Source: Bacillota bacterium
GTDB lineage: Bacteria; Bacillota; Limnochordia; DTU087
Reading direction: 5' to 3'
NCBI GenBank assembly: GCA_012735435.1
Contig: JAAYHH010000011.1
Coordinates: 14,141-78,140 of the forward strand
DNA: 64,000 bases
Positions 25,589-36,091 of the stretch are shown piece by piece (the first letter of the stretch is position 1; each line of letters starts with the position of its first letter). A model generated the notes under the pieces. The model saw only the letters and a list, made by a program, of their open reading frames with translations, ran no database searches and had not been told where the DNA came from. The translations under genes and the position numbers were made by a program.

Positions 25589-25617
25589 TTGACAATTGTG
25601 GCCAGTCATGGTATATT
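25589..25617 (+). promoter_or_regulatory. strong sigma-A promoter with extended -10
   Basis: TTGACA (25589-25594), 17 nt spacer, TGgTATATT (-10 at 25612-25617). Confidence 0.65.
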
Positions 25618-25716
25618 AAAGATGAAAATAACGTGTATACAGGATACATGATGTGTAAGCGTTTGTAGGCGTTCGGATAGATGTCGGCGGGTAGATACTT
25701 TGAAAGGAGTGATCCC

Positions 25717-25887
25717 TTGATAATCTCTGTCGGCAACCGGGAGATTACTATCAAGGTCCGCGAACAGTCAAGACCGGAAATCGCGGAGAGAGTGTACCGT
25801 CAGCTCCTTAGGGAGAGAGAAGTTCAGAAGGATCGGGATGCTGCCTACGCCCGTCTGTTGTTTGGTCAGGGGATTCACTTAAACTAG
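25717..25887 (+). CDS. small hypothetical protein (56 aa)
   Basis: TTG 25717 is preceded by GAAAGGAG plus 7 nt. It is framed by a strong promoter about 100 nt upstream and a strong terminator downstream. Sequence: LIISVGNREITIKVREQSRPEIAERVYRQLLREREVQKDRDAAYARLLFGQGIHLN. Confidence 0.55.
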   Translation: MIISVGNREITIKVREQSRPEIAERVYRQLLREREVQKDRDAAYARLLFGQGIHLN

Positions 25888-25910: not shown

Positions 25911-25974
25911 AAAAAGCAAACTGCGATGCTATACCACTCAAGGTACAAGGCATCGCAGTTTGTTTATTCTTTAT
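25911..25974. terminator. bidirectional rho-independent terminator
   Basis: A 14-bp stem GCAAACTGCGATGC / GCATCGCAGTTTGT (25916-25929 and 25950-25963). It has TTATTCTTTAT on the plus side and AAAAA (U5 in minus sense) on the other. It closes both the small plus-strand gene and the minus-strand SLH gene. Confidence 0.75.
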
Positions 25975-26017: not shown

Positions 26018-27574
26018 TTAGTTTACAAACCCGATAATCAACGCCAGTACCGCTGCAATGGTTGCGATATTGGCGGCACTCTTAAGACTCTGATTCTGCT
26101 TCTCAGCATGGGTTCGGTAGCTGTCAAACTCATCCCGCAGCTCCTGCAGCTGCCGCTCCAGCCGCTGTTCCCGCATTAGGGCTGCATTGATCTGGGCAGA
26201 TGATTGTGTAATCACCCGCTCATCAACGGCTGCCAGGGCAGACTCTGTGGCGCTTACCCGCTCCTGCAGTATAGAAACAGCTGCCTGCAGCTCTTCAACG
26301 TAATCCTGCAGATCTGCAAGATCCTTGCTGTCAGCTGCTGCACCCTGCTGCAAGATATTGGTCCTCTTGTCTAAGGCAGCGATCTTCTGAGAAATATTTA
26401 CAAGGTCTGTCTGGACTGCCTCCAAACTCCTAACCAGGTCTTGACGCAGACCGCTGACATCCTTCATCAATTGCCCATCCGCGGCAGCCATAGCTTCTCC
26501 CTGTTTCAAGACTTGATCCTGGAGCGCCTGCACATCTTCGGCAAGTGCAGCCGTCTCCTCAGAGCGGGCAAGTCTTTCCTCCGCTACAGCCTGCTGCAGC
26601 TGTCCAATTTCAGCGGTTAGCTGATCATCCCTCTGGGCGGATTCTTCTTGCCAGCTGCTCAGCTCTTGCTCCATTTGGACAAGCTGCTGGACAACCTCAG
26701 ACAGGCCCTTTTCCACCCGACTGATCTCTTCTGCCAGTTCAGCATCGGCCTCTTGCATGGCGTTCTGCAGTAAGCTTAAAGCCGCATCCCGTTCCGCAAA
26801 GCTGCTCTGGACCTTTACACCCAAAGCCTCCTCCAGCGCTACTAGTGAGTCAGTGTGGAGTGCCAGCATCCGGGTGTGCTCATCTAACCTTGCTTCATTG
26901 GCTTCAACAGCGGCCTCGGTATCGGCCAGGGCTGCTGCCTGTTTGACAAGCTCATCCTCAAGGGCTTGAAGCTTACGGCCCTGGTCAGCAGCCTGCTGCC
27001 TAAGGTCTGCATCAGCAGCTTCGAGGCGCCGGGTGGTATCGGCAACCTGCTGCTGGAGGGCGGCAATTTCCGCCAATATGGCTGCTGCCTGCTCCTGTAT
27101 AGAGGTGCGGATAGCTGCATCTTCCTGCTCCATTGTGTCGATGACCTTAGTCACAGTCTCATCCATTACCTGAACACGACGCTGGGTTTCGGTAACGGAA
27201 GCTGACAGCTCTTCCCTTTGATTATACCACCGTACAAGTTCATCCCTAAACTCGGTAGAAAGTGTCCGGAGCAGTTCCAAATCCTCCTGAGTTACACCCA
27301 GCTGCCCTTTTTCGATGTCCACTAGGAGCCGGCCAACTACTGAAGCCAGCGTATACCTATCGACAGGTCTCTGACCTTGAAAAGTTCCATCGGTATAGAG
27401 AGCAAGATAACCTTCCTGGACTAACTTTTGAACACCCTCATAGGCCCAATGGTCTGCAGGCACATCGCTGATCTGCTGTGCAGTCTGCTGGGCAAAAACA
27501 AGATTCCCCTGACCTACCAACAGCAGCAAAAACAGTAGTACAACTCCTATTCTTCGAATTGTCCTCGACTCCAT
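26018..27574 (-). CDS. SLH-domain, long coiled-coil, C-terminally membrane-anchored protein (Omp-alpha-like architecture)
   Basis: Signal peptide ending LVFAQQ. One SLH motif (DVPADHWAYEGVQKLVQEGYLALYTDGTFQGQRPVDRYTLA). About 390 aa of Ala/Gln/Glu/Leu-rich heptad-like sequence. Terminal hydrophobic tail IATIAAVLALIIGFVN. Confidence 0.75.
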   Translation of the reverse strand: MESRTIRRIGVVLLFLLLLVGQGNLVFAQQTAQQISDVPADHWAYEGVQKLVQEGYLALYTDGTFQGQRPVDRYTLASVVGRLLVDIEKGQLGVTQEDLELLRTLSTEFRDELVRWYNQREELSASVTETQRRVQVMDETVTKVIDTMEQEDAAIRTSIQEQAAAILAEIAALQQQVADTTRRLEAADADLRQQAADQGRKLQALEDELVKQAAALADTEAAVEANEARLDEHTRMLALHTDSLVALEEALGVKVQSSFAERDAALSLLQNAMQEADAELAEEISRVEKGLSEVVQQLVQMEQELSSWQEESAQRDDQLTAEIGQLQQAVAEERLARSEETAALAEDVQALQDQVLKQGEAMAAADGQLMKDVSGLRQDLVRSLEAVQTDLVNISQKIAALDKRTNILQQGAAADSKDLADLQDYVEELQAAVSILQERVSATESALAAVDERVITQSSAQINAALMREQRLERQLQELRDEFDSYRTHAEKQNQSLKSAANIATIAAVLALIIGFVN

Positions 27575-27630: not shown

Positions 27631-29664
27631 TTACCTGGCAACAGTAACCGGCAGTTCCATGGGTCCCAATTCGATCACCTGTCCACTGGTGGTGGTCAGC
27701 TTGGTACCCAGCAGCTGGATGACACCGGTGCCTTCAGCGCCTGCCACAAACCGGATTGAACACAGGTTACCTGTCAATCGACTGGGTCCCAGCTGTGAAA
27801 GCCCCCGGAGTTTCACCTGGATAATGCCCTGTGACGGCTGCAGCTCCACCTCCATCGGAGCGGCATCTCCCACGGCAGCCGATAGAGGTGCCAGGACCTC
27901 GCCCCGCTCTACTCCAAGGCGGCCGCCGGCTACCCGCATCAGGTCCACTGGAAACTTAAGCAAGAACTCTGCCTCTTCGATGTTCTTCAGATTATAGCCC
28001 CTTATGGCCGTCTTCATAGGCCCTCCCACAACAGCGGGGCCTGTCCCCTCTGCGATGAGTCTGATCATTTGGGGAAGCTGCGGTATGCTGATAAATTCAT
28101 TTACAATCAGCGGTTCGGTGGCACCGGACTCCACCCTCACCGAATAGGGCAGGCTGTCACTGGCCACATCGGTTGGGGTTAAGAACCACTGAACCACAAT
28201 GGACTCCTGTGGACCGAGATCTCCGCAGAGTTTAGTCCGCCCCTCACCAGGGGCCAGCTGAAGCCCCAAGGGTGCCTGCCATTGGGCATGAACCCACGGT
28301 GCATTCATTTCACCGACATTGGTGATGGTGGCCCTAACGGCAAAGGGTACCGGCTGCAGACTTCCATCTTCAACTAAGAGACGGGGCGGTGCGGAGATTT
28401 TCACCTGCAGTTCGGCAGGTTTGGCGATCCTAACTTGCCGCCGCACCCGGTTGGGCTCACTGTTGGCAGCTTCAACCTTTACTTCGTAGCTGATTTCACC
28501 TCTAATATGGTCAGCCACTTCCACTTGCCAGGCCAGCTGTACTGACTCTCCCACTTCCAAATTACCCAGGCTGCCGCCGGCCTCCTGTCCAGGAACCAGG
28601 GACAAGCCGCTGGGCAGTTCAATGGCTATCCTAACATCCCTAGCCTCACCTTCGCCGCTGTTCTCCAGATAGGCGACAATCGGGAACCTTGTCGGTCCGT
28701 CGGGGGCGTGGGAGACTACAGCAGGTGATGTGACTCCCAAGGAAAGCTTTCCGGGAGCAATGGTTATACCGCCAAGCCCGTAGTAAGTTACCCAAGTAAC
28801 GCTCTCGCCGGGACCGAGGGTGACCGGATCCCAAAACATAGCAATCGCCGAATCCAGCTCAAATTCACCCTTCCGGAGGAAAATGCGGCCAGGGTCAAAA
28901 TCAAAATCCCAGATGCTCTCTGCCAAAGCTCCCCAGTTGCTGAAGTACACCCGATCAGGCGGGGTTACCCCTGAACCCCGCAGGGTTCCCTGGGACATAA
29001 CCTGGGGATCGGCCAGGGAGTCGAATGCCTGCCAAAACTCCGGTATAGCTCCTCCGGTAAACAATGTATCGGTAGTAACAGCCTGCTGCTCTACCCTAAA
29101 GGGGGCACCGTCATTGGCGCCCAACATAGTATCCAGCATAAGCCGCATGGCTACGCTGTGGGAAACAGAATCCTCATTGGTCAAAGTATAGGCAATCCGG
29201 GCTGTATCTTGCAGACCAGTGGTGCTGCTTCGGGTAAAGCTGAGGATCTGCTCCGCTTTCACCGGCCCTAGTTTATATACAGTGCTGATGGCATTTCCCT
29301 GGATAACTTCGGGTCCTGAGATCAGCTCCCCGAATGGTCCTTGTCTTCCAGCGGAGGTCTGTGTCGGACCGCCAAATACATAGTTGCGACCGTCTATTTG
29401 GATCGTGGTGTAAGAAGTCCAAGGATCGGCCATGCCGTAAACTAAGGGTTTGTTTTCATCACCGATCCGGTCAGGATCTCCGCCGGTGGTGTTGATGGAG
29501 AACCGGCCGGTGTTTTCTTCGCCTCCGTTGACAATGATGGAAATGTATTCATTGGCGACAATGATATTGCTGCCGACGTTACCTTCGACCATAGCCCGGG
29601 CCTTCTCTACTTCACAGCTAATCAACATGACCGCAGCCAGGGCAATTGCCAACCAGCGCCGCAT
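27631..29664 (-). CDS. exported (possibly lipidated) 677-aa multidomain protein
   Basis: Signal MRRWLAIALAAVMLISC (lipobox-like LISC), or an AxA site KARA/M. It has an unrecognised ~300-aa N-domain. Two Ig/CARDB-like modules follow (IVAYLENSGEGEARDVRIAIELPSGL; VRATITNVGEMNAPWV). The C-terminal beta-sandwich resembles a cohesin (AEFLLKFPVDLMRV...GNLCSIRFVAGAEGTGVIQL). Confidence 0.7.
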   Translation of the reverse strand: MRRWLAIALAAVMLISCEVEKARAMVEGNVGSNIIVANEYISIIVNGGEENTGRFSINTTGGDPDRIGDENKPLVYGMADPWTSYTTIQIDGRNYVFGGPTQTSAGRQGPFGELISGPEVIQGNAISTVYKLGPVKAEQILSFTRSSTTGLQDTARIAYTLTNEDSVSHSVAMRLMLDTMLGANDGAPFRVEQQAVTTDTLFTGGAIPEFWQAFDSLADPQVMSQGTLRGSGVTPPDRVYFSNWGALAESIWDFDFDPGRIFLRKGEFELDSAIAMFWDPVTLGPGESVTWVTYYGLGGITIAPGKLSLGVTSPAVVSHAPDGPTRFPIVAYLENSGEGEARDVRIAIELPSGLSLVPGQEAGGSLGNLEVGESVQLAWQVEVADHIRGEISYEVKVEAANSEPNRVRRQVRIAKPAELQVKISAPPRLLVEDGSLQPVPFAVRATITNVGEMNAPWVHAQWQAPLGLQLAPGEGRTKLCGDLGPQESIVVQWFLTPTDVASDSLPYSVRVESGATEPLIVNEFISIPQLPQMIRLIAEGTGPAVVGGPMKTAIRGYNLKNIEEAEFLLKFPVDLMRVAGGRLGVERGEVLAPLSAAVGDAAPMEVELQPSQGIIQVKLRGLSQLGPSRLTGNLCSIRFVAGAEGTGVIQLLGTKLTTTSGQVIELGPMELPVTVAR

Positions 29665-29720: not shown

Positions 29721-30647
29721 CTACTCGTTCCGGACATACCTGACACCATCGTAAAGAATCGATACCCTAAACTCCGGCGGACCGCTGAAGGAGACAGTTA
29801 CCGTCAGAATATAATCCTCCAGCAGCGGCTCCATTCGCCATCCGTTCTGGATAGTTAAGCTTGCTACCTGGTCTAGGCTTGCTGCCCCGGAAGACTGGAT
29901 GATGTCAATCCGGGTTGCTCTAGTAGACCCCTTGGGGACATAGGCATCCAGCTTCACAGTGCCTGCCAAGCCCTCGTTAATTGCATTCTTGGGGTACTGA
30001 ATCCGGCCACCGCCTGCTACCAGAGTGCTTGCCGCCGGCAGTGGAGGCAGTGGCGGTGGCGAAGGTGGTGTCGGTTCTGCCTCTTCATCGCTTTCTGTCT
30101 CGGATGAAGAACCGCCTGGTTCGCCGGCAGGGGCAGAATCGCCTCCAGCCATGACAGCATCTTGACCTTGCTCGCTGGTCAGGATTTGCTCCCCATTGCT
30201 GTCAGGCTGCGATAGAGCCTCTTCACTGGCTGCCGGATCCGGCTCAGGTTCAGGCTCAGGCACTACCCTGGTGTCAGGAGTCTTAACTTCCTCTTGGGGA
30301 GCCGGGGTCGTCTCCTGCGGCTTTGGTGCTGGCTCCGGTTCAGTCTTGGTTACCTCGGCCTTGGCAGTTTCAACCGGTTCCGGTTCTTCCTTCGGTGGCG
30401 TGGGTTCCTGACGACGGGGAGTTTGCTGCTGCGGCTGCTGCCTGACCGCTTGGGTTCTAGGCGCTGGCTGCTGGACCTCTACGGGTACAACAGAAATAAT
30501 ACCGCCGCCAGGACCTGCAAAAAGGCCGGGTCCAACCGCAAATTCCCAGCGGGGAAAGACAAAGAACAGCATTGCGTGAAGGATAAGCGAAATCAAGACA
30601 AAGGCTCCAAAGGAGCGGTCTGACTCATCTCCTGTATACATTGCCAC
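29721..30647 (-). CDS. TonB/TolA-type energy-transducing protein
   Basis: N-terminal TM with the SxxxH motif (FVLISLILHAMLFF). About 150 aa of Pro/Glu/Lys/Thr-rich spacer (EPEPEPDP, PPSPPPLPPLP). TonB_C-like end YPKNAINEGLAGTVKLDAYV...IIQSSGAASLDQVA. Confidence 0.75.
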   Translation of the reverse strand: MAMYTGDESDRSFGAFVLISLILHAMLFFVFPRWEFAVGPGLFAGPGGGIISVVPVEVQQPAPRTQAVRQQPQQQTPRRQEPTPPKEEPEPVETAKAEVTKTEPEPAPKPQETTPAPQEEVKTPDTRVVPEPEPEPDPAASEEALSQPDSNGEQILTSEQGQDAVMAGGDSAPAGEPGGSSSETESDEEAEPTPPSPPPLPPLPAASTLVAGGGRIQYPKNAINEGLAGTVKLDAYVPKGSTRATRIDIIQSSGAASLDQVASLTIQNGWRMEPLLEDYILTVTVSFSGPPEFRVSILYDGVRYVRNE

Positions 30648-30691: not shown

Positions 30692-31105
30692 CTACCTGCC
30701 CCGGGGTTCAACTGCAAGGCCAAAGCGATATCCTCCCAGCTGCCGAACAACATCCATTACTTGAACTATATAATCATAGCGAGCCTCCCGGTCAGCTTTA
30801 ATGACGACAAAAAGGTCCGGCCTTTTCTCCAATGCTTTGCCGACCTCTGACCTTAGAGTATTACTACTGACCTGACGCTCACCCAAGAACATCCGTCCAT
30901 CTTTAGCTACAGAAATGGTGATCTGGCTGCTGGCTTGTCTGTCCCAACTTGCCGCCTTGGGCAGTTCAAGATTCAATCCTGCTGGATGGGTCTTAAAGGT
31001 CGTAGCCAGCATGAAGAACACCAAAACAGAAAAAATAATATCAACCAGCGGCACTATTTGAATCGTTGGCTTTTTGTTGCGGACAGAGCGGCGGGCTATC
31101 ATCAC
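30692..31105 (-). CDS. exbD: ExbD/TolR family proton-channel subunit
   Basis: A 137-aa protein. Its single TM carries the conserved Asp (IVPLVDIIFSVLVFFM), followed by a periplasmic domain (VVIKADREARYDYIVQVMD). It overlaps exbB by 4 nt. Confidence 0.85.
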   Translation of the reverse strand: MMIARRSVRNKKPTIQIVPLVDIIFSVLVFFMLATTFKTHPAGLNLELPKAASWDRQASSQITISVAKDGRMFLGERQVSSNTLRSEVGKALEKRPDLFVVIKADREARYDYIVQVMDVVRQLGGYRFGLAVEPRGR

Positions 31106-31716
31106 ACATCACCCCTCGCCTCAAAGATGGCCAACAGCTCCGAAGAGCGTTTGTTGATATCAACCACTAGGCGGTCGATTAATCCCGAAAGGTAAGAATA
31201 AATCAGAGTACCCGGAATGGCGATTACTAAGCCGGTTGCAGTTGTAATTAGGGCTTCTGCAATTCCTGTGCTTAAGGCAAGGGTATCATCTAAGCCGCCA
31301 ACCGCTGAAATCACTTGAAAACTATTGATAATACCTGTTACTGTACCTAAGAGACCAAGCAACGGTGCAGCGGTGATGATTGCATCGAGAAGTCCCAGCC
31401 GGCGTTCCATACGGAAGACCTCTTCATAGGCCACTTCTTCCAAGCGCTCTCGGATAAACTGCTTGTCCTTATCATAATGGGCTATCCCCGCCGCCAGTAC
31501 AGCCGCAACCGGGCCTCTGGTTTTCTTTGCTATCTGGATAGCTTCCAGGATTTTGCCTTGCTGAAGAGCCAGTTTAATGTCATCCATCAAATCCTCTGTA
31601 TCTACTCGACAGCGAAGCAAGTAGACCAGCCTTTCGAGAGAGACAGCTACCATCAATACAGAGCAAAGCAGCAACGGGATCATTACCGGGCCGCCCCGAA
31701 TGATCAAATCCAGCAT
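31102..31716 (-). CDS. exbB: MotA/TolQ/ExbB family proton-channel subunit
   Basis: Three TM spans and the conserved C-terminal half AAPLLGLLGTVTGIINSF...GIAEALITTATGLVIAIP. ATG 31716 follows GGAGG plus 8 nt; the track ORF starts at 31743. Confidence 0.85.
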   Translation of the reverse strand: MLDLIIRGGPVMIPLLLCSVLMVAVSLERLVYLLRCRVDTEDLMDDIKLALQQGKILEAIQIAKKTRGPVAAVLAAGIAHYDKDKQFIRERLEEVAYEEVFRMERRLGLLDAIITAAPLLGLLGTVTGIINSFQVISAVGGLDDTLALSTGIAEALITTATGLVIAIPGTLIYSYLSGLIDRLVVDINKRSSELLAIFEARGDV

Positions 31717-31756
31717 TCTATATACCTCCACTCCGTCCCACATTCATTGGGTAAGA

Positions 31757-31783
31757 CTATTCGACAATCAGGTACCATATCCT
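31757..31783 (-). promoter_or_regulatory. candidate sigma-H type promoter for the exbB operon
   Basis: Minus strand GAAGGATAT (-35, RNAGGAWWW), then 14 nt, then GTCGAATAG (-10, RNNGAATWW). The AGGA-to-GAAT distance of 21 nt matches my recollection of the spoVG promoter. The -10 overlaps Spo0A box 1. Confidence 0.35.
31760..31766 (-). promoter_or_regulatory. Spo0A-box heptamer 1
   Basis: Minus strand TGTCGAA, a perfect 0A-box core, in the context TTGTCGAATA. Confidence 0.4.
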
Positions 31784-31865
31784 TCCTGGCTATTCCCTTG
31801 AGAAACTCCCACGAGAATTTCCTCTAAAGGCCTACGTGCTTCCCTGATTTTCCCCTCTTGGCATT

Positions 31866-31872
31866 TTCGACA
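31866..31872 (-). promoter_or_regulatory. Spo0A-box heptamer 2
   Basis: Minus strand TGTCGAA in the context TTGTCGAAAA. It has the same orientation as box 1 and lies 106 bp upstream of it. Confidence 0.4.
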
Positions 31873-31931
31873 AGGCAAGAGACAACTCCTGCCGTCAAAA
31901 GTCCATCTGAAACAAAGAAAGACGTGGATAT

Positions 31932-31960
31932 GAATAGGGAAATGTCCCCAGGATATGCTA
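31932..31960 (+). promoter_or_regulatory. candidate forespore (sigma-G/F type) promoter for the SASP gene
   Basis: GAATA (GHATR), 17 nt spacer, TATGCTA (consensus CATXHTA, first base mismatched). It lies about 30 nt before the start codon. Confidence 0.35.
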
Positions 31961-31985
31961 CCATCAAGATGCTTTTCGACGGGAG

Positions 31986-32213
31986 ATGGGATCTATAATG
32001 GATAGGGAATTAGAAGCAGTTCGGGATCGAGCCATGGACCAGCTCAAGCATGATTTAATAAAAGAGATGGGCTTGTGGGACCTAGTGCAGACCGAAGGCT
32101 GGGGAGCACTGCCGGCCAAGGACTGCGGCCGTATCGGTGGGAAGATGGCAACGAGGCTCAGCCCCAACATCCTCCGGAAAATAGCTGACATGAGCCAAAC
32201 ACAGGGCAAGTAG
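31986..32213 (+). CDS. alpha/beta-type small acid-soluble spore protein
   Basis: LKHDLIKEMGL...ALPAKDCGRIGGKMATRL follows the two conserved SASP blocks (LKxExAxExG and TxxxxGxVGGxxxKRL). The start could be ATG 31986 or ATG 31998. Confidence 0.75.
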   Translation: MGSIMDRELEAVRDRAMDQLKHDLIKEMGLWDLVQTEGWGALPAKDCGRIGGKMATRLSPNILRKIADMSQTQGK

Positions 32214-32234
32214 GAAGCGGGCTGTTGATGGCAA

Positions 32235-32266
32235 CAAAAAAGGCGGTGACCCTGTCGTCTACCGCC
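32235..32266 (-). terminator. terminator after the acetyltransferase gene
   Basis: Minus sense GGCGGU-AGACGACAGGGUC-ACCGCC followed by UUUUUUG. Confidence 0.55.
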
Positions 32267-32278
32267 CTGGGGATCTTC

Positions 32279-32845
32279 TCAGCCTGCCAAGAGCCTGTAC
32301 TGGGGATGAATTTCATAAAATTCGTCTCTTAGGATGCGCATCAAATAGATTTCCCTCAGCTCCTCGGAACTCCGTGTTCGAATGAGCTTACCCTCTTTCT
32401 TAAATCCGGCCTTCTCATAACAGCGAATCGCAGGGCGATTGGTGCTGGCGACACGCAAGTATACGCGGGAAAGCTTCATTTCACCAAAGGCATAACACAG
32501 GAGGGCTGTAACGCTCTCCAATCCATAACCTTTTCCCCGATAATCACCTTCGCCGATGCGGATTCGAAGCTCTGCATCGCCGCTGCGCCAGGCAATGTGG
32601 TCTAACTCAATATCACCGATGGGAACTCCATTTCGGGTGGTAATTACCAGCCGTCGGATATGGCGGTTGCTGCGCTGTTTTTCATACCACTCCTGACAAT
32701 CCGCCAGGGTTTCAGGATAACCATCATCCTCCATATAATGTCCTACTTCTGGGTCCTTGGTCCATTTAACTATCTCGGGAAAATCCGACGGCATAATCGG
32801 CCGGAGGATGATCCTCTCCCCTTCAATTTTCATGTCTGCTGCCAC
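32279..32845 (-). CDS. GNAT family N-acetyltransferase (RimJ/RimL-like)
   Basis: ILRPIMPSDFPEIVKW...RIRIGEGDYRGKGYGLESVTALLCYAF...NRPAIRCYEKAGFKKEG (acetyl-CoA binding R/Q-x-x-G-x-G/A). Confidence 0.8.
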   Translation of the reverse strand: MAADMKIEGERIILRPIMPSDFPEIVKWTKDPEVGHYMEDDGYPETLADCQEWYEKQRSNRHIRRLVITTRNGVPIGDIELDHIAWRSGDAELRIRIGEGDYRGKGYGLESVTALLCYAFGEMKLSRVYLRVASTNRPAIRCYEKAGFKKEGKLIRTRSSEELREIYLMRILRDEFYEIHPQYRLLAG

Positions 32846-33014
32846 CTCTTTGCCTACAGCATCTGCTGCGTTGTTTAAGCCGCGAAATCTGGTTCGTCTA
32901 CAGTTACTAGCGGGCGATTCCTAAGTTAAGGCTTCTACTTAGATTTCTACTTAATCAGAGCCTAACCTTTAGGCAATAGCAGCCAGTCATGCCACGTGAC
33001 AGCAAAGGTGACAA

Positions 33015-33779
33015 CTATTCCATCAGGGACTCCCGCAGTAGGCCGGTAATCCGTTTCTCCAGTCTTGATACCTGCCCTTGGGAAATCCCCAGCATTTCCG
33101 CCACTTCAGTTTGGGTTCGCTCTTGTATAAAACGCAGGACCACAATGGCCCGATCCCTGGGGGACAGCTCCTCACAAGCCTGCTTCAGGGCGTAGTTTTC
33201 TATCCACGTGTCCGATTCCGGCTCTACTCCCAGCTTGTCTTCCAGATGAAGGGCGCTTTCACTGTCTTCGTGAATGACTTCGTGGATGGATAGTATAGGA
33301 GCCACTGCCTCCAAGGCCTCAACTACTTCCTCCCGCTCCATGCCCAGTAAGTCACCGATTTCCCCTGGGGTTGGCGCTCTGCCCAAGCGCTGCTCCAAAC
33401 TATCCCTTGCCCTGATGGCTGCCGCGGCTTTCTCCCGCAAGGTACGGCCAAGCTTAATAGCCCCTTCCTCCCGGAGAAAGCGGCGGATTTCCCCCATGAT
33501 CACCGGCACCGCATAGGTGGAGAATTGAACACCGTAGGAAAGATCAAAGTTATCAATTGCTTTGACAAGTCCGATGCAGGCTACCTGGAACAAATCATCA
33601 AGTTCTCCTCTGCCGCTGAAGCGCTGAGCGATGGACATGGCCAGCCGCAGGTTGGCCTCAATCAGCTGCTCCCTTGCTTCAGCATTGCCAGCCTGTGCTT
33701 CAGCCAGCAGGCTCTGGACTTCCTCTGAGGTTAAGCTCAAAGCTGGAGGCAGTTGGATCTTGCCTGAAGGCTCTTGCAT
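33015..33779 (-). CDS. sigF: sporulation sigma factor F
   Basis: Colinear with Bacillus SigF as I recall it: DDLFQVACIGLVKAIDNFDLSYGVQFSTYAVPVIMGEIRRFLRE...QTEVAEMLGISQGQVSRLEKR. It is the third gene of a spoIIA-type operon. Confidence 0.9.
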   Translation of the reverse strand: MQEPSGKIQLPPALSLTSEEVQSLLAEAQAGNAEAREQLIEANLRLAMSIAQRFSGRGELDDLFQVACIGLVKAIDNFDLSYGVQFSTYAVPVIMGEIRRFLREEGAIKLGRTLREKAAAAIRARDSLEQRLGRAPTPGEIGDLLGMEREEVVEALEAVAPILSIHEVIHEDSESALHLEDKLGVEPESDTWIENYALKQACEELSPRDRAIVVLRFIQERTQTEVAEMLGISQGQVSRLEKRITGLLRESLME

Positions 33780-33791
33780 AGTGCTCTCTCC

Positions 33792-34238
33792 CTAAGAATG
33801 CACTCGGGCCTGAGTCGGTGACTTGATCATGAACAAAGAGGTTCCTCTACCCGGCTCTGAATCGATCTCCAGCTTGTCCATGTATTCCCGTACAAAGACA
33901 AGACCCAGCCCCATTCGTTCTTCCGGTTCTGTGGTAAAAGCTGGTTCCAAGGCCTGTTCTACATCGGCTATACCGCGCCCCTCGTCCTTCACCGTTATTT
34001 CCAATCGATCATTGGTCAGCCGGCAGGTAACGGTGATCTCGCCCTCCGTGCCCTTATAGCCGTGGATCACCGCATTGGATACCGCTTCCGATACTGCAAT
34101 CTTGATCTCATCAAGTTCATCGAGGGTAAACTCCAGCTGTGATGCGAAGAGAGCAACAGCGGTTCGGGCAAAACCTATGTTGGCCGCCTTGCTGGGAAAC
34201 CGCATTACCACCTTGTTTTCGACAGTTTCCATCATCAT
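33792..34238 (-). CDS. spoIIAB: anti-sigma F factor / Ser kinase SpoIIAB
   Basis: GHKL kinase N-box EAVSNAVIHGY, G-boxes DEGRGI and GLGLVF. About 146 aa. Confidence 0.9.
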   Translation of the reverse strand: MMMETVENKVVMRFPSKAANIGFARTAVALFASQLEFTLDELDEIKIAVSEAVSNAVIHGYKGTEGEITVTCRLTNDRLEITVKDEGRGIADVEQALEPAFTTEPEERMGLGLVFVREYMDKLEIDSEPGRGTSLFMIKSPTQARVHS

Positions 34239-34597
34239 CTTCCCCCAATCTGAGCCAGTGCTTGTTCTTCAGTATCGGCAAACTGCATAATCCGTTCCAT
34301 GCCGGCCATTCTCAGCACCCGCCGTACTGGATCCACAGCCTTAAGGGCTACCACTTTCCCTGCCCGGGCTTGAATCTGTTTGTACCGCCCCAAGAGAACT
34401 CCGAGACCTGAACTGTCGATAAAGTCAACATTCTCCAGATCCCAAATCAAGTGATGAACCTTGGAATTCTCCGCCAAGGCCGCGTCCACCCGTTCCTTGA
34501 CCTCAGCAGCCGTAGCTAGGTCCAGCTCGCCTCCTAAAGATACAATCAATGCCCTTCCCTTCCGCCTAATCTCTATATCCACCCTCTGCCCCTCCAA
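34235..34597 (-). CDS. spoIIAA: anti-anti-sigma factor SpoIIAA (STAS)
   Basis: STAS domain with the phosphorylatable Ser context VDFIDSSGLGVLLG. It overlaps spoIIAB by 4 nt. Confidence 0.9.
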   Translation of the reverse strand: MEGQRVDIEIRRKGRALIVSLGGELDLATAAEVKERVDAALAENSKVHHLIWDLENVDFIDSSGLGVLLGRYKQIQARAGKVVALKAVDPVRRVLRMAGMERIMQFADTEEQALAQIGGR

Positions 34598-34649
34598 AAA
34601 TTAATGCAACCAAAGCAACTGCAATAAAAGTTAGGTGTCCGTTAAATGT

Positions 34650-34676
34650 ATTTTCACGCACATCTGATAAATTCCT
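34650..34676 (-). promoter_or_regulatory. weak candidate sigma-H promoter for spoIIAA-AB-sigF
   Basis: Minus strand GCAGGAATTT, then 13 nt, then GAAAAT. This resembles the RNAGGAWWW / GAAT pair, but the -10 is imperfect. Confidence 0.3.
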
Positions 34677-34721
34677 GCTAGACAGCTAAACCGTTGCTGC
34701 AAGTCGCAGCAAGCAGTCCAG

Positions 34722-34756
34722 CCAAAAGCAGAAAGAGGAGCCTCTAAGCTCCTCTT
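34722..34756 (-). terminator. terminator after dacF
   Basis: Minus sense AAGAGGAGC-UUAGAG-GCUCCUCUU followed by UCUGCUUUUGG. Confidence 0.6.
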
Positions 34757-34825
34757 TGCACTTAACTGCCTTATGGGCACTATTAGTTGCAGTAATTATG
34801 CCCTGTCAAGGACCTTGGTCCCAGG

Positions 34826-36091
34826 TTATCGATTAGGCGATTGGCCCGGCACGATGCTTTGCAGCAGCCGTTTGGACATTCTAAGCAGCATTTGAACTAT
34901 ATTGGCCCTTTCCACATCACTGTCAGCCACTATTTCCACTCTGGCAATCTCCATGCCGCTGCGTTTTACCACCAGCTCACCTAAAACTTCGCCTTTCCGT
35001 AAAGGCGCAACCAACTCTTTTTTCCAATCAATTTCCCGGGTCAATTCTCCTTGACTGCCCCTGGGCACGCCCACGGTAAGTTCTTCTACAGTACTGACAG
35101 ACACCTTTTCTTCTTTACCCCATGAAACCACCGCCTCCCCCAGGGGTTCCCCCGGCCGGGCAATAGTTACCGGCTCATAGGTGCGAAAACCGTAGTCCAG
35201 CAAGGTCACAGTGTCCTTTCTGCGAGCCTCCTTGGTAGGAGCACCAAGGACCACTGAAATCAGCCGCATGCCGTCTCGCTCTGCTGTGGCCGCTAAACAG
35301 AAACCCGCTTCTGATGTCATGCCGGTCTTAATGCCGTCTAAGCCCGGATACCCGTAGCGTCTACCGGACTGCAGAACCCGGTCAAGGAGCTCATTGAGGG
35401 TATATAGGTGGGGTTTGCCCGTGGTGTCGGGACGCATGGTATATTCATGGGTCGACACCAGCTCAATCAGGTGGGGAACCCGTACGGCATGGCGGGATAG
35501 CAGTGCCAAATCATAGGCAGAGGAGTGGTGCTCTGCATCCAAGCCCAGGGTCCTGGGGGGCAGTCCGCTGGCATTGCTGAAAACTGTATTCTTCATCCCC
35601 AGCTCCTGTGCCCTGCGGTTCATCTCGGCTGCAAAATTTGCTTCAGAGCCTGACAAATACTCCGCTACAGCGACAGCGGCGTCATTTGCAGAACCCACTG
35701 CAATGGCGTAGAGCATGTCTTTCATCGTCATTTGCTCTCCGACTTCCAGCCAAATCTGGGAGCCTCCCATATTGGCAGCATATTCACTGGTGGTAACTAT
35801 ATCATCGAAAGAGGCCTTGCCAGCTTCTATCGCCTCTAGTGCCAGCACTAAGGTCATTATCTTGGTGATACTTGCCATGGGAAGAGGAAGATGCATGTCT
35901 TTTTCGTATATCACCTCGCCTGATCTGGCCTCCATAAGGACAGCTGCCTTTGCCGAGATGTCGAGTTCTTGGCCCCGGACTGGCACGACACCAAGGGTGC
36001 TAAGGCAGAGTGCAGTCAGCAAGATGATAGCGGCGGTTCTCTTCTGGACAAATGGCAATTGAATCCCTCCTCTGCCATATCTCTTCTGCAT
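34826..36091 (-). CDS. dacF: D-alanyl-D-alanine carboxypeptidase (S11), DacF-like by position
   Basis: SxxK is ASITK, SxN is SNASG, and KTG is IKTGMT. It has a signal peptide and lies directly upstream of spoIIAA, as in Bacillus. Confidence 0.8.
   Translation of the reverse strand: MQKRYGRGGIQLPFVQKRTAAIILLTALCLSTLGVVPVRGQELDISAKAAVLMEARSGEVIYEKDMHLPLPMASITKIMTLVLALEAIEAGKASFDDIVTTSEYAANMGGSQIWLEVGEQMTMKDMLYAIAVGSANDAAVAVAEYLSGSEANFAAEMNRRAQELGMKNTVFSNASGLPPRTLGLDAEHHSSAYDLALLSRHAVRVPHLIELVSTHEYTMRPDTTGKPHLYTLNELLDRVLQSGRRYGYPGLDGIKTGMTSEAGFCLAATAERDGMRLISVVLGAPTKEARRKDTVTLLDYGFRTYEPVTIARPGEPLGEAVVSWGKEEKVSVSTVEELTVGVPRGSQGELTREIDWKKELVAPLRKGEVLGELVVKRSGMEIARVEIVADSDVERANIVQMLLRMSKRLLQSIVPGQSPNR

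Follow-up and report, generated by a model that had tools for sequence, protein, structure and literature searches.

What does a wall-binding head, carried on a long coiled coil that ends in a hydrophobic helix, do as the last product of a Ton/Tol-type operon in an apparently spore-forming member of the Firmicutes? The question is raised by a gene in a 64,000-nucleotide stretch of Bacillota bacterium DNA (assembly GCA_012735435.1, contig JAAYHH010000011.1, positions 14,141 to 78,140 of the forward strand; hereafter the window, in whose numbering all coordinates are given). The gene, whose product we call the rod, combines a domain of the S-layer homology (SLH) type, a coiled coil and a C-terminal helix, and it closes a cassette of five genes. 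What is new here is a proposed helix-anchored tether of the Omp-alpha/OmpM type in Firmicutes, hard-wired to a Ton/Tol-like motor. That the rod is an Omp-alpha-type wall-to-membrane envelope tether working with the motor of the cassette is a reading we hold to be about evenly balanced between right and wrong. The parts of the rod gene are as follows.

26018-27574, minus strand: rod gene, 518 amino acids, SLH / coiled coil / C-terminal helix; gene 5 of 5 of the cassette, an open reading frame (ORF) started by ATG.
27491-27574, minus strand: signal peptide, residues 1-28 (MESRTIRRIGVVLLFLLLLVGQGNLVFA, then QQ), with hydrophobic residues 5-28, a basic n-region and a cleavage-type site VFA/QQ.
27311-27472, minus strand: single SLH domain of the OmpM/SlpA/Omp-alpha type, residues 35-88 (Pfam SLH, PDB matches, invariant columns).
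26825-27289, minus strand: rod segment 1, residues 96-250, about 23 nm if straight (AlphaFold2 helix; register shifts near residues 158 and 194).
26792-26824, minus strand: break or hinge, residues 251-261 (GVKVQSSFAER; LEEALGVKVQSSFAERD), non-helical in the AlphaFold2 model with a predicted local distance difference test (pLDDT) score of about 35; register shift at residue 253.
26081-26791, minus strand: rod segment 2, residues 262-498, about 35 nm if straight (AlphaFold2 helix 262-517; register, periodicity).
26117-26188, minus strand: membrane-proximal motif, residues 463-486 (NAALMREQRLERQLQELRDEFDSY), from a 15-sequence alignment.
26024-26080, minus strand: C-terminal hydrophobic helix, residues 499-517 (SAANIATIAAVLALIIGFV), then a single Asn; Kyte-Doolittle 15-residue mean up to 2.86.

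An earlier reading of this DNA, made by a model from the letters and their ORFs (the sequence-only reading), had not given the strand of the gene. The ORF is on the minus strand; the plus-strand frame of the same interval is stop-rich, and the Shine-Dalgarno sequence GGGAGGAA stands directly 5' of the rod ATG. The signal peptide, with three Arg and a Leu-rich core, is of the Sec type, and equivalent N-termini are found by alignment in all rod homologues. The only substantial Pfam match of the rod is to SLH, at residues 35-73 (E 1e-7; 32.3 bits, cutoff 20.8), and the NCBIfam model por_somb matches residues 32-128. The best solved relatives are Deinococcus radiodurans SlpA (7zgx, E 2e-10) and Veillonella OmpM (8bz2/8bys/8bym, E 1e-9). 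Columns W43, Y45, G63/G67 and R73 of the SLH domain are invariant across the rod family. In VpOmpM1 the ligand contacts of the SLH domain are a Trp, a Gly and the Arg of TRAE/TRYE (PMC10628300); the rod has VDRYT in place of TRAE/TRYE, and despite this motif the ligand-contacting residues (W, G, R) are invariant in its family. The sequence-only reading had described a signal peptide ending in LVFAQQ, a single SLH motif and a hydrophobic segment at the extreme C-terminus. The first two are borne out by the data just given, the SLH match being above the gathering score, and the third by the finding that residues 5-28 and 499-518 are the only hydrophobic stretches in the protein.

Between head and tail the protein is a coiled coil. 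No Pro occurs beyond residue 70, and Ala, Leu, Gln and Glu together make up 49% of the protein. Hydrophobic periodicity over residues 96-498 has a single spectral peak at 3.56 residues with a power of 7.8, against 1.0 +/- 0.25 (maximum 2.07) in 500 shuffles, and a period of 3.5-3.56 residues is found in every member of the rod family. Register tracking identified canonical heptads, with Leu, Val and Ile prevailing at positions a and d, and seven discontinuities near residues 158, 194, 253, 283, 321, 370 and 455. In the AlphaFold2 monomer (mean pLDDT 71) two SLH helices are followed by helices 96-250 and 262-517, the second of which continues straight into the hydrophobic tail, and the hinge between them keeps the motif LE(E/N)xxG.K...FA in homologues of only 31-33% identity (LENWAGEKxAVFA in distant ones). 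A Foldseek search of the rod model against the PDB gave no significant match, and self-BLAST of the rods for internal repeats returned the identity match only. The coiled coil proposed in the sequence-only reading therefore holds when register and stutters are examined. Its length of about 390 residues is also right (about 392 helical residues), but it is not uninterrupted, having seven register shifts and a conserved 11-residue break. The 155 + 237 residues at about 0.148 nm each amount to about 58 nm, in agreement with the earlier estimate of 50-60 nm, provided that the rod is straight.

The rod belongs to a family. Its exact sequence was absent when looked up in public contigs. A word-indexed search gave 48 relatives, and a full profile search over 1.84 billion representatives gave 174 cluster representatives at E<=1e-30. 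Of the 150 best of these, whose lengths range from 172 to 1480 amino acids, 130 have a hydrophobic tail at the end. In the family alignment two conserved ends flank a middle of highly variable length, as would be expected for a connector. The conserved N end is the SLH domain with about 50 residues of proximal coil, and the conserved C end, the last 55 residues or so, is the motif ALxREQRLERQLxELxxEFxSY followed by the helix. R468, E469, E473, R474, L479 and F483 of this motif are at least 90% conserved in 15 sequences of only about 30% overall identity. The anchors have an uncharged span with a median of 18 residues that is rich in Gly/Ala at helix-packing spacing, followed by 0-2 residues, and in length, Gly/Ala content and short tail they are like the anchors of nine Omp-alpha family members. 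Halanaerobiales rods are about 200-270 amino acids long (coil of about 85-150 residues, 13-22 nm) and those of Limnochordia about 350-650. Natural rod lengths from about 12 to more than 100 nm with conserved ends are a ready-made experiment on whether rods of this kind set the spacing of the envelope. At the upper extreme, three members of 1003-1480 amino acids (P0329, P0331 and P0342), whose straight rods of 130-200 nm would be far beyond any known periplasm, keep the hydrophobic tail; an N-terminal SLH motif is present in two of the three, the SLH pattern used having failed to match P0329.

The genes of the cassette and its terminator are listed here in order of transcription.

31102-31743, minus strand: gene 1, ExbB/TolQ-like proton-channel protein (Pfam MotA_ExbB, E 2e-32).
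30692-31105, minus strand: gene 2, ExbD/TolR-like protein of 137 amino acids (Pfam ExbD, E 3e-28).
29721-30647, minus strand: gene 3, TonB/TolA-like protein of 308 amino acids (Pfam TonB_C, E 5e-9).
27631-29664, minus strand: gene 4, P677, a secreted all-beta protein of 677 amino acids.
26018-27574, minus strand: gene 5, the rod.
25911-25961, minus strand: intrinsic terminator directly 3' of the rod gene, stem AAACTGCGATGC / GCATCGCAGTTT, then GCUUUUU.

The junctions within the cassette range from a 4-bp overlap to 56 bp, and a strong terminator is found only after its last gene (RNA fold of -30.7 kcal/mol, z = -7.5, with none of 200 shuffles as stable). This operon and its conservation are the main new result. 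When genomes were scanned, one for each species, 80 loci were recovered. Among the 46 best, 44 have P677 directly upstream of the rod gene, and the remaining two have less than 700 nucleotides of upstream sequence. Most of the 44 also have exbB, exbD and tonB; a few lack either detectable exbB/exbD, as L003 does on a contig of 1.86 Mb, or a match to tonB at the BLAST threshold applied. Every rod encoded at a cassette locus is helical and poor in proline along its body and ends in a hydrophobic tail. The labels of these loci are Limnochordia, Halanaerobiales/Halanaerobium or unclassified Bacillota, and the cassette is also found on independent metagenome contigs with different flanks. The 34 weaker loci (Negativicutes, Synergistota, Riflebacteria and Armatimonadota) have no cassette and encode canonical OmpM, with barrels ending in F or W. 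When the search was started reciprocally from two P677 homologues, the same five genes were found at both loci, with the SLH / coil / helix protein last. The five genes stay linked even where the rods are no more than about 30% identical and are flanked by different genes. Standing last in a Ton/Tol-type operon is what defines the rod family, and this context is conserved; the sequence-only reading had the position of the gene right, and what it called unusual is typical of the whole family. Two of the loci carry surprising labels: L012 (JBLNCC010000096.1), labelled "Betaproteobacteria bacterium", has a typical Firmicute-type cassette, and L055 (DYEX01000175.1), labelled Desulfovirgula, encodes a canonical OmpM that has its beta-barrel. 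Mistakes of binning or labelling in the public records are the probable cause, or else the envelopes are of unexpected types. In the literature searched we found no description of this cassette or of an Omp-alpha-type protein in Firmicutes.

Together, the SLH/OmpM-type head and the architecture suggest a trimeric wall-binding rod with a membrane-inserted end, and its constant linkage to a proton-driven motor, a transducer and a secreted, adaptor-like protein suggests that the rod works as part of that machine. After Sec export and cleavage of the signal peptide, three chains would probably come together by way of one SLH domain each and a parallel coiled coil; we infer this because trimer assembly has been shown for OmpM and SlpA, and single-SLH domains of the OmpM type function as trimers (PMC10628300, PMC9388160). 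The head would then bind a wall ligand, presumably a pyruvylated secondary cell-wall polymer or modified peptidoglycan. The two-segment rod, of about 23 + 35 nm with a conserved hinge, would project away from the wall, and the Gly/Ala-rich C-terminal helices would sit in a membrane, by analogy with Omp-alpha the outer one. The function of the rod would resemble that of a spacer between wall and outer sheath, if the analogy extends so far. Most probably the motor and transducer, by way of P677, would act on the wall-bound rod or take their position from it, which may involve physical contact of the rod with TonB or P677. Energy from the inner membrane would thereby be coupled to wall-membrane attachment rather than to TonB-dependent import.

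A second membrane is plausible in the host on account of its diderm relatives. The closest species representatives are the anaerobic-digester metagenome-assembled genomes "Clostridiales bacterium DTU087" and "Bacillota bacterium AS15tlH2ME_178", identity to DTU087 being 80% for the rod and 71-97% for neighbouring genes. Limnochordia and Halanaerobiales have been reported to be diderm and partly spore-forming, relatives in culture from Limnochordia and Hydrogenispora are diderm, and in a spore-forming relative of Hydrogenispora an outer membrane, peptidoglycan and a plasma membrane were seen by transmission electron microscopy. Several points nevertheless weigh against an outer-membrane tether worked by the motor. 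The functional coupling of rod and motor is deduced from synteny alone, and the length of the TonB-like protein is weakly related to that of the rod (Spearman 0.37, p 0.026, without phylogenetic correction). We know of no pathway that inserts an alpha-helical C-terminal anchor into a bacterial outer membrane, and a Sec substrate with a terminal hydrophobic helix stays in the inner membrane by default. Of 47 family members 18 end in K or R, as a cytoplasmic location of the C-terminus would allow. Members of 900-1480 amino acids, 130-200 nm if straight, cannot be simple perpendicular spacers. The window contains no outer-membrane marker gene, the diderm envelope of the host being deduced from its relatives. 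These lineages have also been reported to have canonical OmpM tethers, so that a second tether is not obviously needed (PMC9388160).

Domain order and the analogy with Omp-alpha favour the outer membrane, and Sec logic and the terminal K/R the inner one. The tether may, in a scenario that is doubtful yet deserves serious weight, be anchored in the inner membrane, with the helix acting as a stop-transfer sequence in a type I bitopic protein whose SLH domain grips the wall from inside. Such a protein could tie the ExbB/ExbD-TonB machine to the wall, in the way that MotB and TolR do through their peptidoglycan-binding domains, or determine how far the inner membrane lies from the wall. In addition to Sec logic and the terminal K/R, a terminal hydrophobic span of 17-20 residues is as expected for inner-membrane anchoring, the motif at residues 463-486 would adjoin the periplasmic parts of ExbD and TonB, and there is a weak match of residues 402-516 to TIGR04211, an NCBIfam "SH3 and anchor" family that combines a coiled coil with an anchor at the C-terminus. 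The short Halanaerobiales coils of 13-22 nm would fit the gap from inner membrane to wall as well as that from wall to outer membrane. However, the anchors are of the same Gly-zipper type as those of Omp-alpha, many members, the rod of the window included, have no basic residue past the helix while several have basic residues ahead of it, and rods of at least 45-60 nm exceed any ordinary distance between inner membrane and wall. The order with SLH first and membrane element last is also that of OmpM, SlpA and Omp-alpha, in which the C-terminal element has been described in the outer membrane (PMC10160955, PMC9388160). The hydrophobicity of the anchor was tried as a test between inner and outer membrane and was non-discriminating, authentic Omp-alpha anchors being at least as hydrophobic.

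P677, the partner encoded directly upstream of the rod, has at least 705 homologues of very uniform length, with a mean column identity of 52%. Its domains are an N-terminal galactose-mutarotase-like supersandwich (about residues 34-300), a middle Ig/CARDB-like part and a C-terminal cohesin fold (about residues 540-677). The first 300 residues contain dozens of invariant positions (for example TGGDPD, DPWTSYT, MLDTMLGxNDGAPFRV and FWQAFDS), and residues 34-300 or so form a very strongly conserved domain without Pfam coverage, whose conservation and predicted fold suggest a specific glycan-binding or enzymatic site. The copy in the window has LISC; a lipoprotein was considered and rejected, a lipobox being present in only 5 of 50 homologues and the rest having ordinary signal peptides. 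NCBI names for P677 include "cellulosome anchor protein" and "cohesin domain-containing protein", of which the former reflects only its last domain. These names, the real cohesin fold at the C-terminus and the SLH domain of the rod could indicate an ordinary SLH surface protein or a cellulosome-type scaffold that stands beside Ton genes by chance. We think this very improbable. The five genes are linked across lineages in which the rods are about 30% identical and the flanks differ, it is the rod and not the cohesin protein that carries the SLH domain, the cassette showed no dockerin, this SLH domain is of the OmpM/SlpA type of diderm periplasms, and a C-terminal membrane helix would make no sense outside a monoderm wall.

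Against NCBIfam models the product of gene 1 scores 94.6 bits for TolQ (cutoff 221) and 80.6 for ExbB, and that of gene 2 scores 73.2 bits for TolR (cutoff 127.3) and 58 for ExbD, so that the TolQ/TolR models fit slightly better while all of these scores are below the family cutoffs. The true start of the exbB-like gene is probably the ATG at 31716 (MLDLII...) and not the first in-frame ATG at 31743, because GGAGG lies 8 nucleotides upstream of it and homologues begin there too. The TonB/TolA-like protein has an N-terminal transmembrane helix with the SxxxH motif of TonB and TolA, a Pro/Glu/Thr-rich linker and a TonB_C domain; SxxxH is present in the TonB-like protein of 46 of 47 cassettes. 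The NCBIfam models tonB_Cterm and tolA_full (22.6 bits, cutoff 59.45) both match it below cutoff, the latter covering the N-terminal part, and phmmer found no match for this protein in the PDB. A Zorya-like system was also considered and rejected: PADLOC found no defence-system family, and the rod gave coiled-coil noise only.

The genome paper of Halothermothrix orenii, a member of the Halanaerobiales, (2009) reported ExbB, ExbD and TonB with no detectable TonB-dependent receptor and suggested "a different function" (PMC2626281). According to a 2025 survey, Ton systems among diderm Firmicutes are detected only in Negativicutes and not in Halanaerobiales or Limnochordia, and Tol-Pal is found only in Gracilicutes and is absent from Terrabacteria (PMC12204202). 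The reported lack of receptors suggests that the machine is not an importer. A more specific version of the tether reading, which we put forward tentatively and judge unlikely as it stands, is that the cassette is the Tol-Pal analogue of Terrabacteria, in which the proton-motive force would remodel or relocate wall-to-outer-membrane tethers, for example in division or outer-membrane invagination. Gene order and predicted compartments mirror tolQ-tolR-tolA-tolB-pal, the model scores given above lean the same way below their cutoffs, Tol-Pal is reported absent from these bacteria (PMC12204202), and H. orenii has no reported TonB-dependent receptor (PMC2626281). P677, however, is not a beta-propeller and has no similarity to TolB, the rod belongs neither to the lipoproteins nor to the proteins with an OmpA-like domain, nothing points to a TolA-box-like interaction, the cassette was not seen in Negativicutes (also diderm Firmicutes) among the loci retrieved, and the parallel in gene order could be coincidence. 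We speculate, with equal reserve, that the cassette may be a third, hitherto unrecognised kind of ExbB/TolQ-type periplasmic force-transducing system beside Ton and Tol-Pal, a Terrabacterial counterpart of Tol-Pal in which the TonB/TolA-like transducer and P677 as adaptor would drive an Omp-alpha-type SLH tether with the proton-motive force. If true, this would account for the "orphan" Ton genes in Halanaerobiales and Limnochordia alike, and diderm Firmicutes would gain an energised management of wall-to-outer-membrane attachment.

The window also carries sigF, spoIIAB, spoIIAA, a dacF-like gene and a small acid-soluble spore protein (SASP) gene, so the host forms spores. Limnochordia-type loci, at least 12 of them (L006, L009, L011, L013, L018, L020, L026, L040, L042, L047, L089 and L090), have the cassette exactly between dacF-spoIIAA-spoIIAB-sigF and spoVAC-spoVAD, the spoIIA and spoVA operons, which in Bacillus subtilis adjoin each other. 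In the window (31102-36091) it adjoins sigF, spoIIAB and the SASP gene, with pstCAB-phoU-miaB-mutS on the other side instead of spoVA, and in Halanaerobiales-type loci miaB-mutS lies a few kb downstream. This position, which may or may not be meaningful, could be read as a sign that the cassette serves the remodelling of the spore envelope in sporulation or germination. In diderm sporeformers the future outer membrane derives from the inner membrane, so a tether with a Sec-inserted helix could end there. The evidence for such a role is positional only, though, and other loci have unrelated flanks (L004/L017) or miaB-mutS downstream; no sporulation-sigma promoter is recognisable upstream of the cassette either, and we regard the role as improbable.

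Directly upstream of exbB a block of about 65 nucleotides (31723-31787, minus strand; AGGAAGGATATGGTACCTGATTGTCGAATAGTCTTACCCAATGAATGTGGGACGGAGTGGAGGTA) is near-invariant among the window, L007, L008 and L001, while identity among the encoded proteins is no more than 63-82%. By its folding (z +0.8) this is not a structured RNA, and an Rfam scan gave no match to it or to any other part of the window. The block is probably a promoter or operator; no convincing sporulation-type or sigma-70 promoter was found upstream of exbB. At the other end, between the terminator of the cassette and pstC, there is a 68-amino-acid ORF on the plus strand (25681-25887) with no Pfam match, preceded by a promoter-like site (25589-25617, plus strand) with a near-consensus TTGACA-17-TATATT and an extended TG. 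L001 and L002 have a 56-amino-acid ORF in the equivalent position and relative orientation.

The current picture of envelope tethering in Terrabacteria is of OmpM everywhere, with a split Omp-alpha/Omp-beta system in Thermotogae and neighbours, and published surveys assign OmpM to three diderm Firmicute lineages (PMC9388160). An Omp-alpha-type protein beside OmpM would give two deep lineages of diderm Firmicutes, which serve in modelling how the outer membrane was lost, a tether of a second kind. Its strict linkage to a motor provides a concrete candidate for the function of Ton genes left without a receptor partner since the H. orenii paper of 2009, and this "orphan" motor may serve the cell envelope and not the import of nutrients.

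How, then, does the cassette compare with systems that are already known? With the Ton system it shares the Pfam domains MotA_ExbB, ExbD and TonB_C and the SxxxH motif in the transmembrane helix of the TonB-like protein. No TonB-dependent transporter was found within 10 kb in any annotated cassette locus examined, and where a Ton system has such a transporter as its partner, the conserved partners here are P677 and the rod. With Tol-Pal it shares the order of channel, stator partner, SxxxH periplasm-spanning transducer, secreted soluble protein and membrane-anchored wall binder. Neither a TolB beta-propeller nor a Pal/OmpA-like domain is present in P677 or the rod, and the wall binder is an SLH domain with a coiled coil and a helix, in contrast to the lipid anchor and OmpA-like domain of Tol-Pal. 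The likeness is one of logic, not of membership.

OmpM and SlpA (Veillonella OmpM1, Deinococcus SlpA) have, like the rod, a single SLH domain on a coiled-coil stalk and the same ligand-contacting residues, and their superfamily comprises established wall-to-outer-membrane tethers, with the SLH domain in diderm periplasms. The rod stalk is far longer than that of Veillonella OmpM1, and the C-terminal outer-membrane beta-barrel of OmpM/SlpA is replaced in the rod by one hydrophobic helix. A barrel with a terminal aromatic residue is found in no cassette-linked protein and in all 34 non-cassette loci.

The closest likeness is to Omp-alpha (OmpA1 of Thermotoga), reported from Thermotogae, Bipolaricaulota and Fraserbacteria and not from Firmicutes. 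We compared the rod family with authentic database proteins (P0169-P0184, one of them named "outer membrane anchor protein OmpA1"). These have the same signal peptide, one SLH domain, a long proline-free coil and a Gly-rich C-terminal helix with 0-2 residues after it, and their rod of 45-50 nm (PMC10160955) is of the same order as the 58 nm or so estimated here. The SLH heads are homologous (BLASTP E 7e-17; hhalign probability 99.8%, residues 3-99). Beyond residue 99, in rod and anchor, hhalign detected no homology between the families, and the BLASTP similarity within the rod part is low-identity coiled-coil similarity. As far as sequence comparison can tell, the head is homologous and the remainder is the same design without demonstrable common descent. 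The Omp-alpha layout recognised in the sequence-only reading is therefore upheld as a layout of SLH, coil and C-terminal helix, but it does not extend to homology beyond the head or to gene context. Thermotoga ompA follows tyrS and precedes a gene of 414 or 325 amino acids without a Pfam match (presumed Omp-beta), with no Ton genes nearby; Omp-alpha adjoins tyrS and, in some genera, the beta-barrel gene ompB, whereas the rod adjoins Ton-like genes. An Omp-beta-type barrel partner is not matched in the cassette, where P677 is a chain of beta-sandwich domains and not a barrel. The conserved hinge, the membrane-proximal motif and the VDRYT version of the SLH motif are features of the rod family's own, and in contrast to Omp-alpha the rod does not stand alone as a spacer but is the last product encoded by a conserved motor operon.

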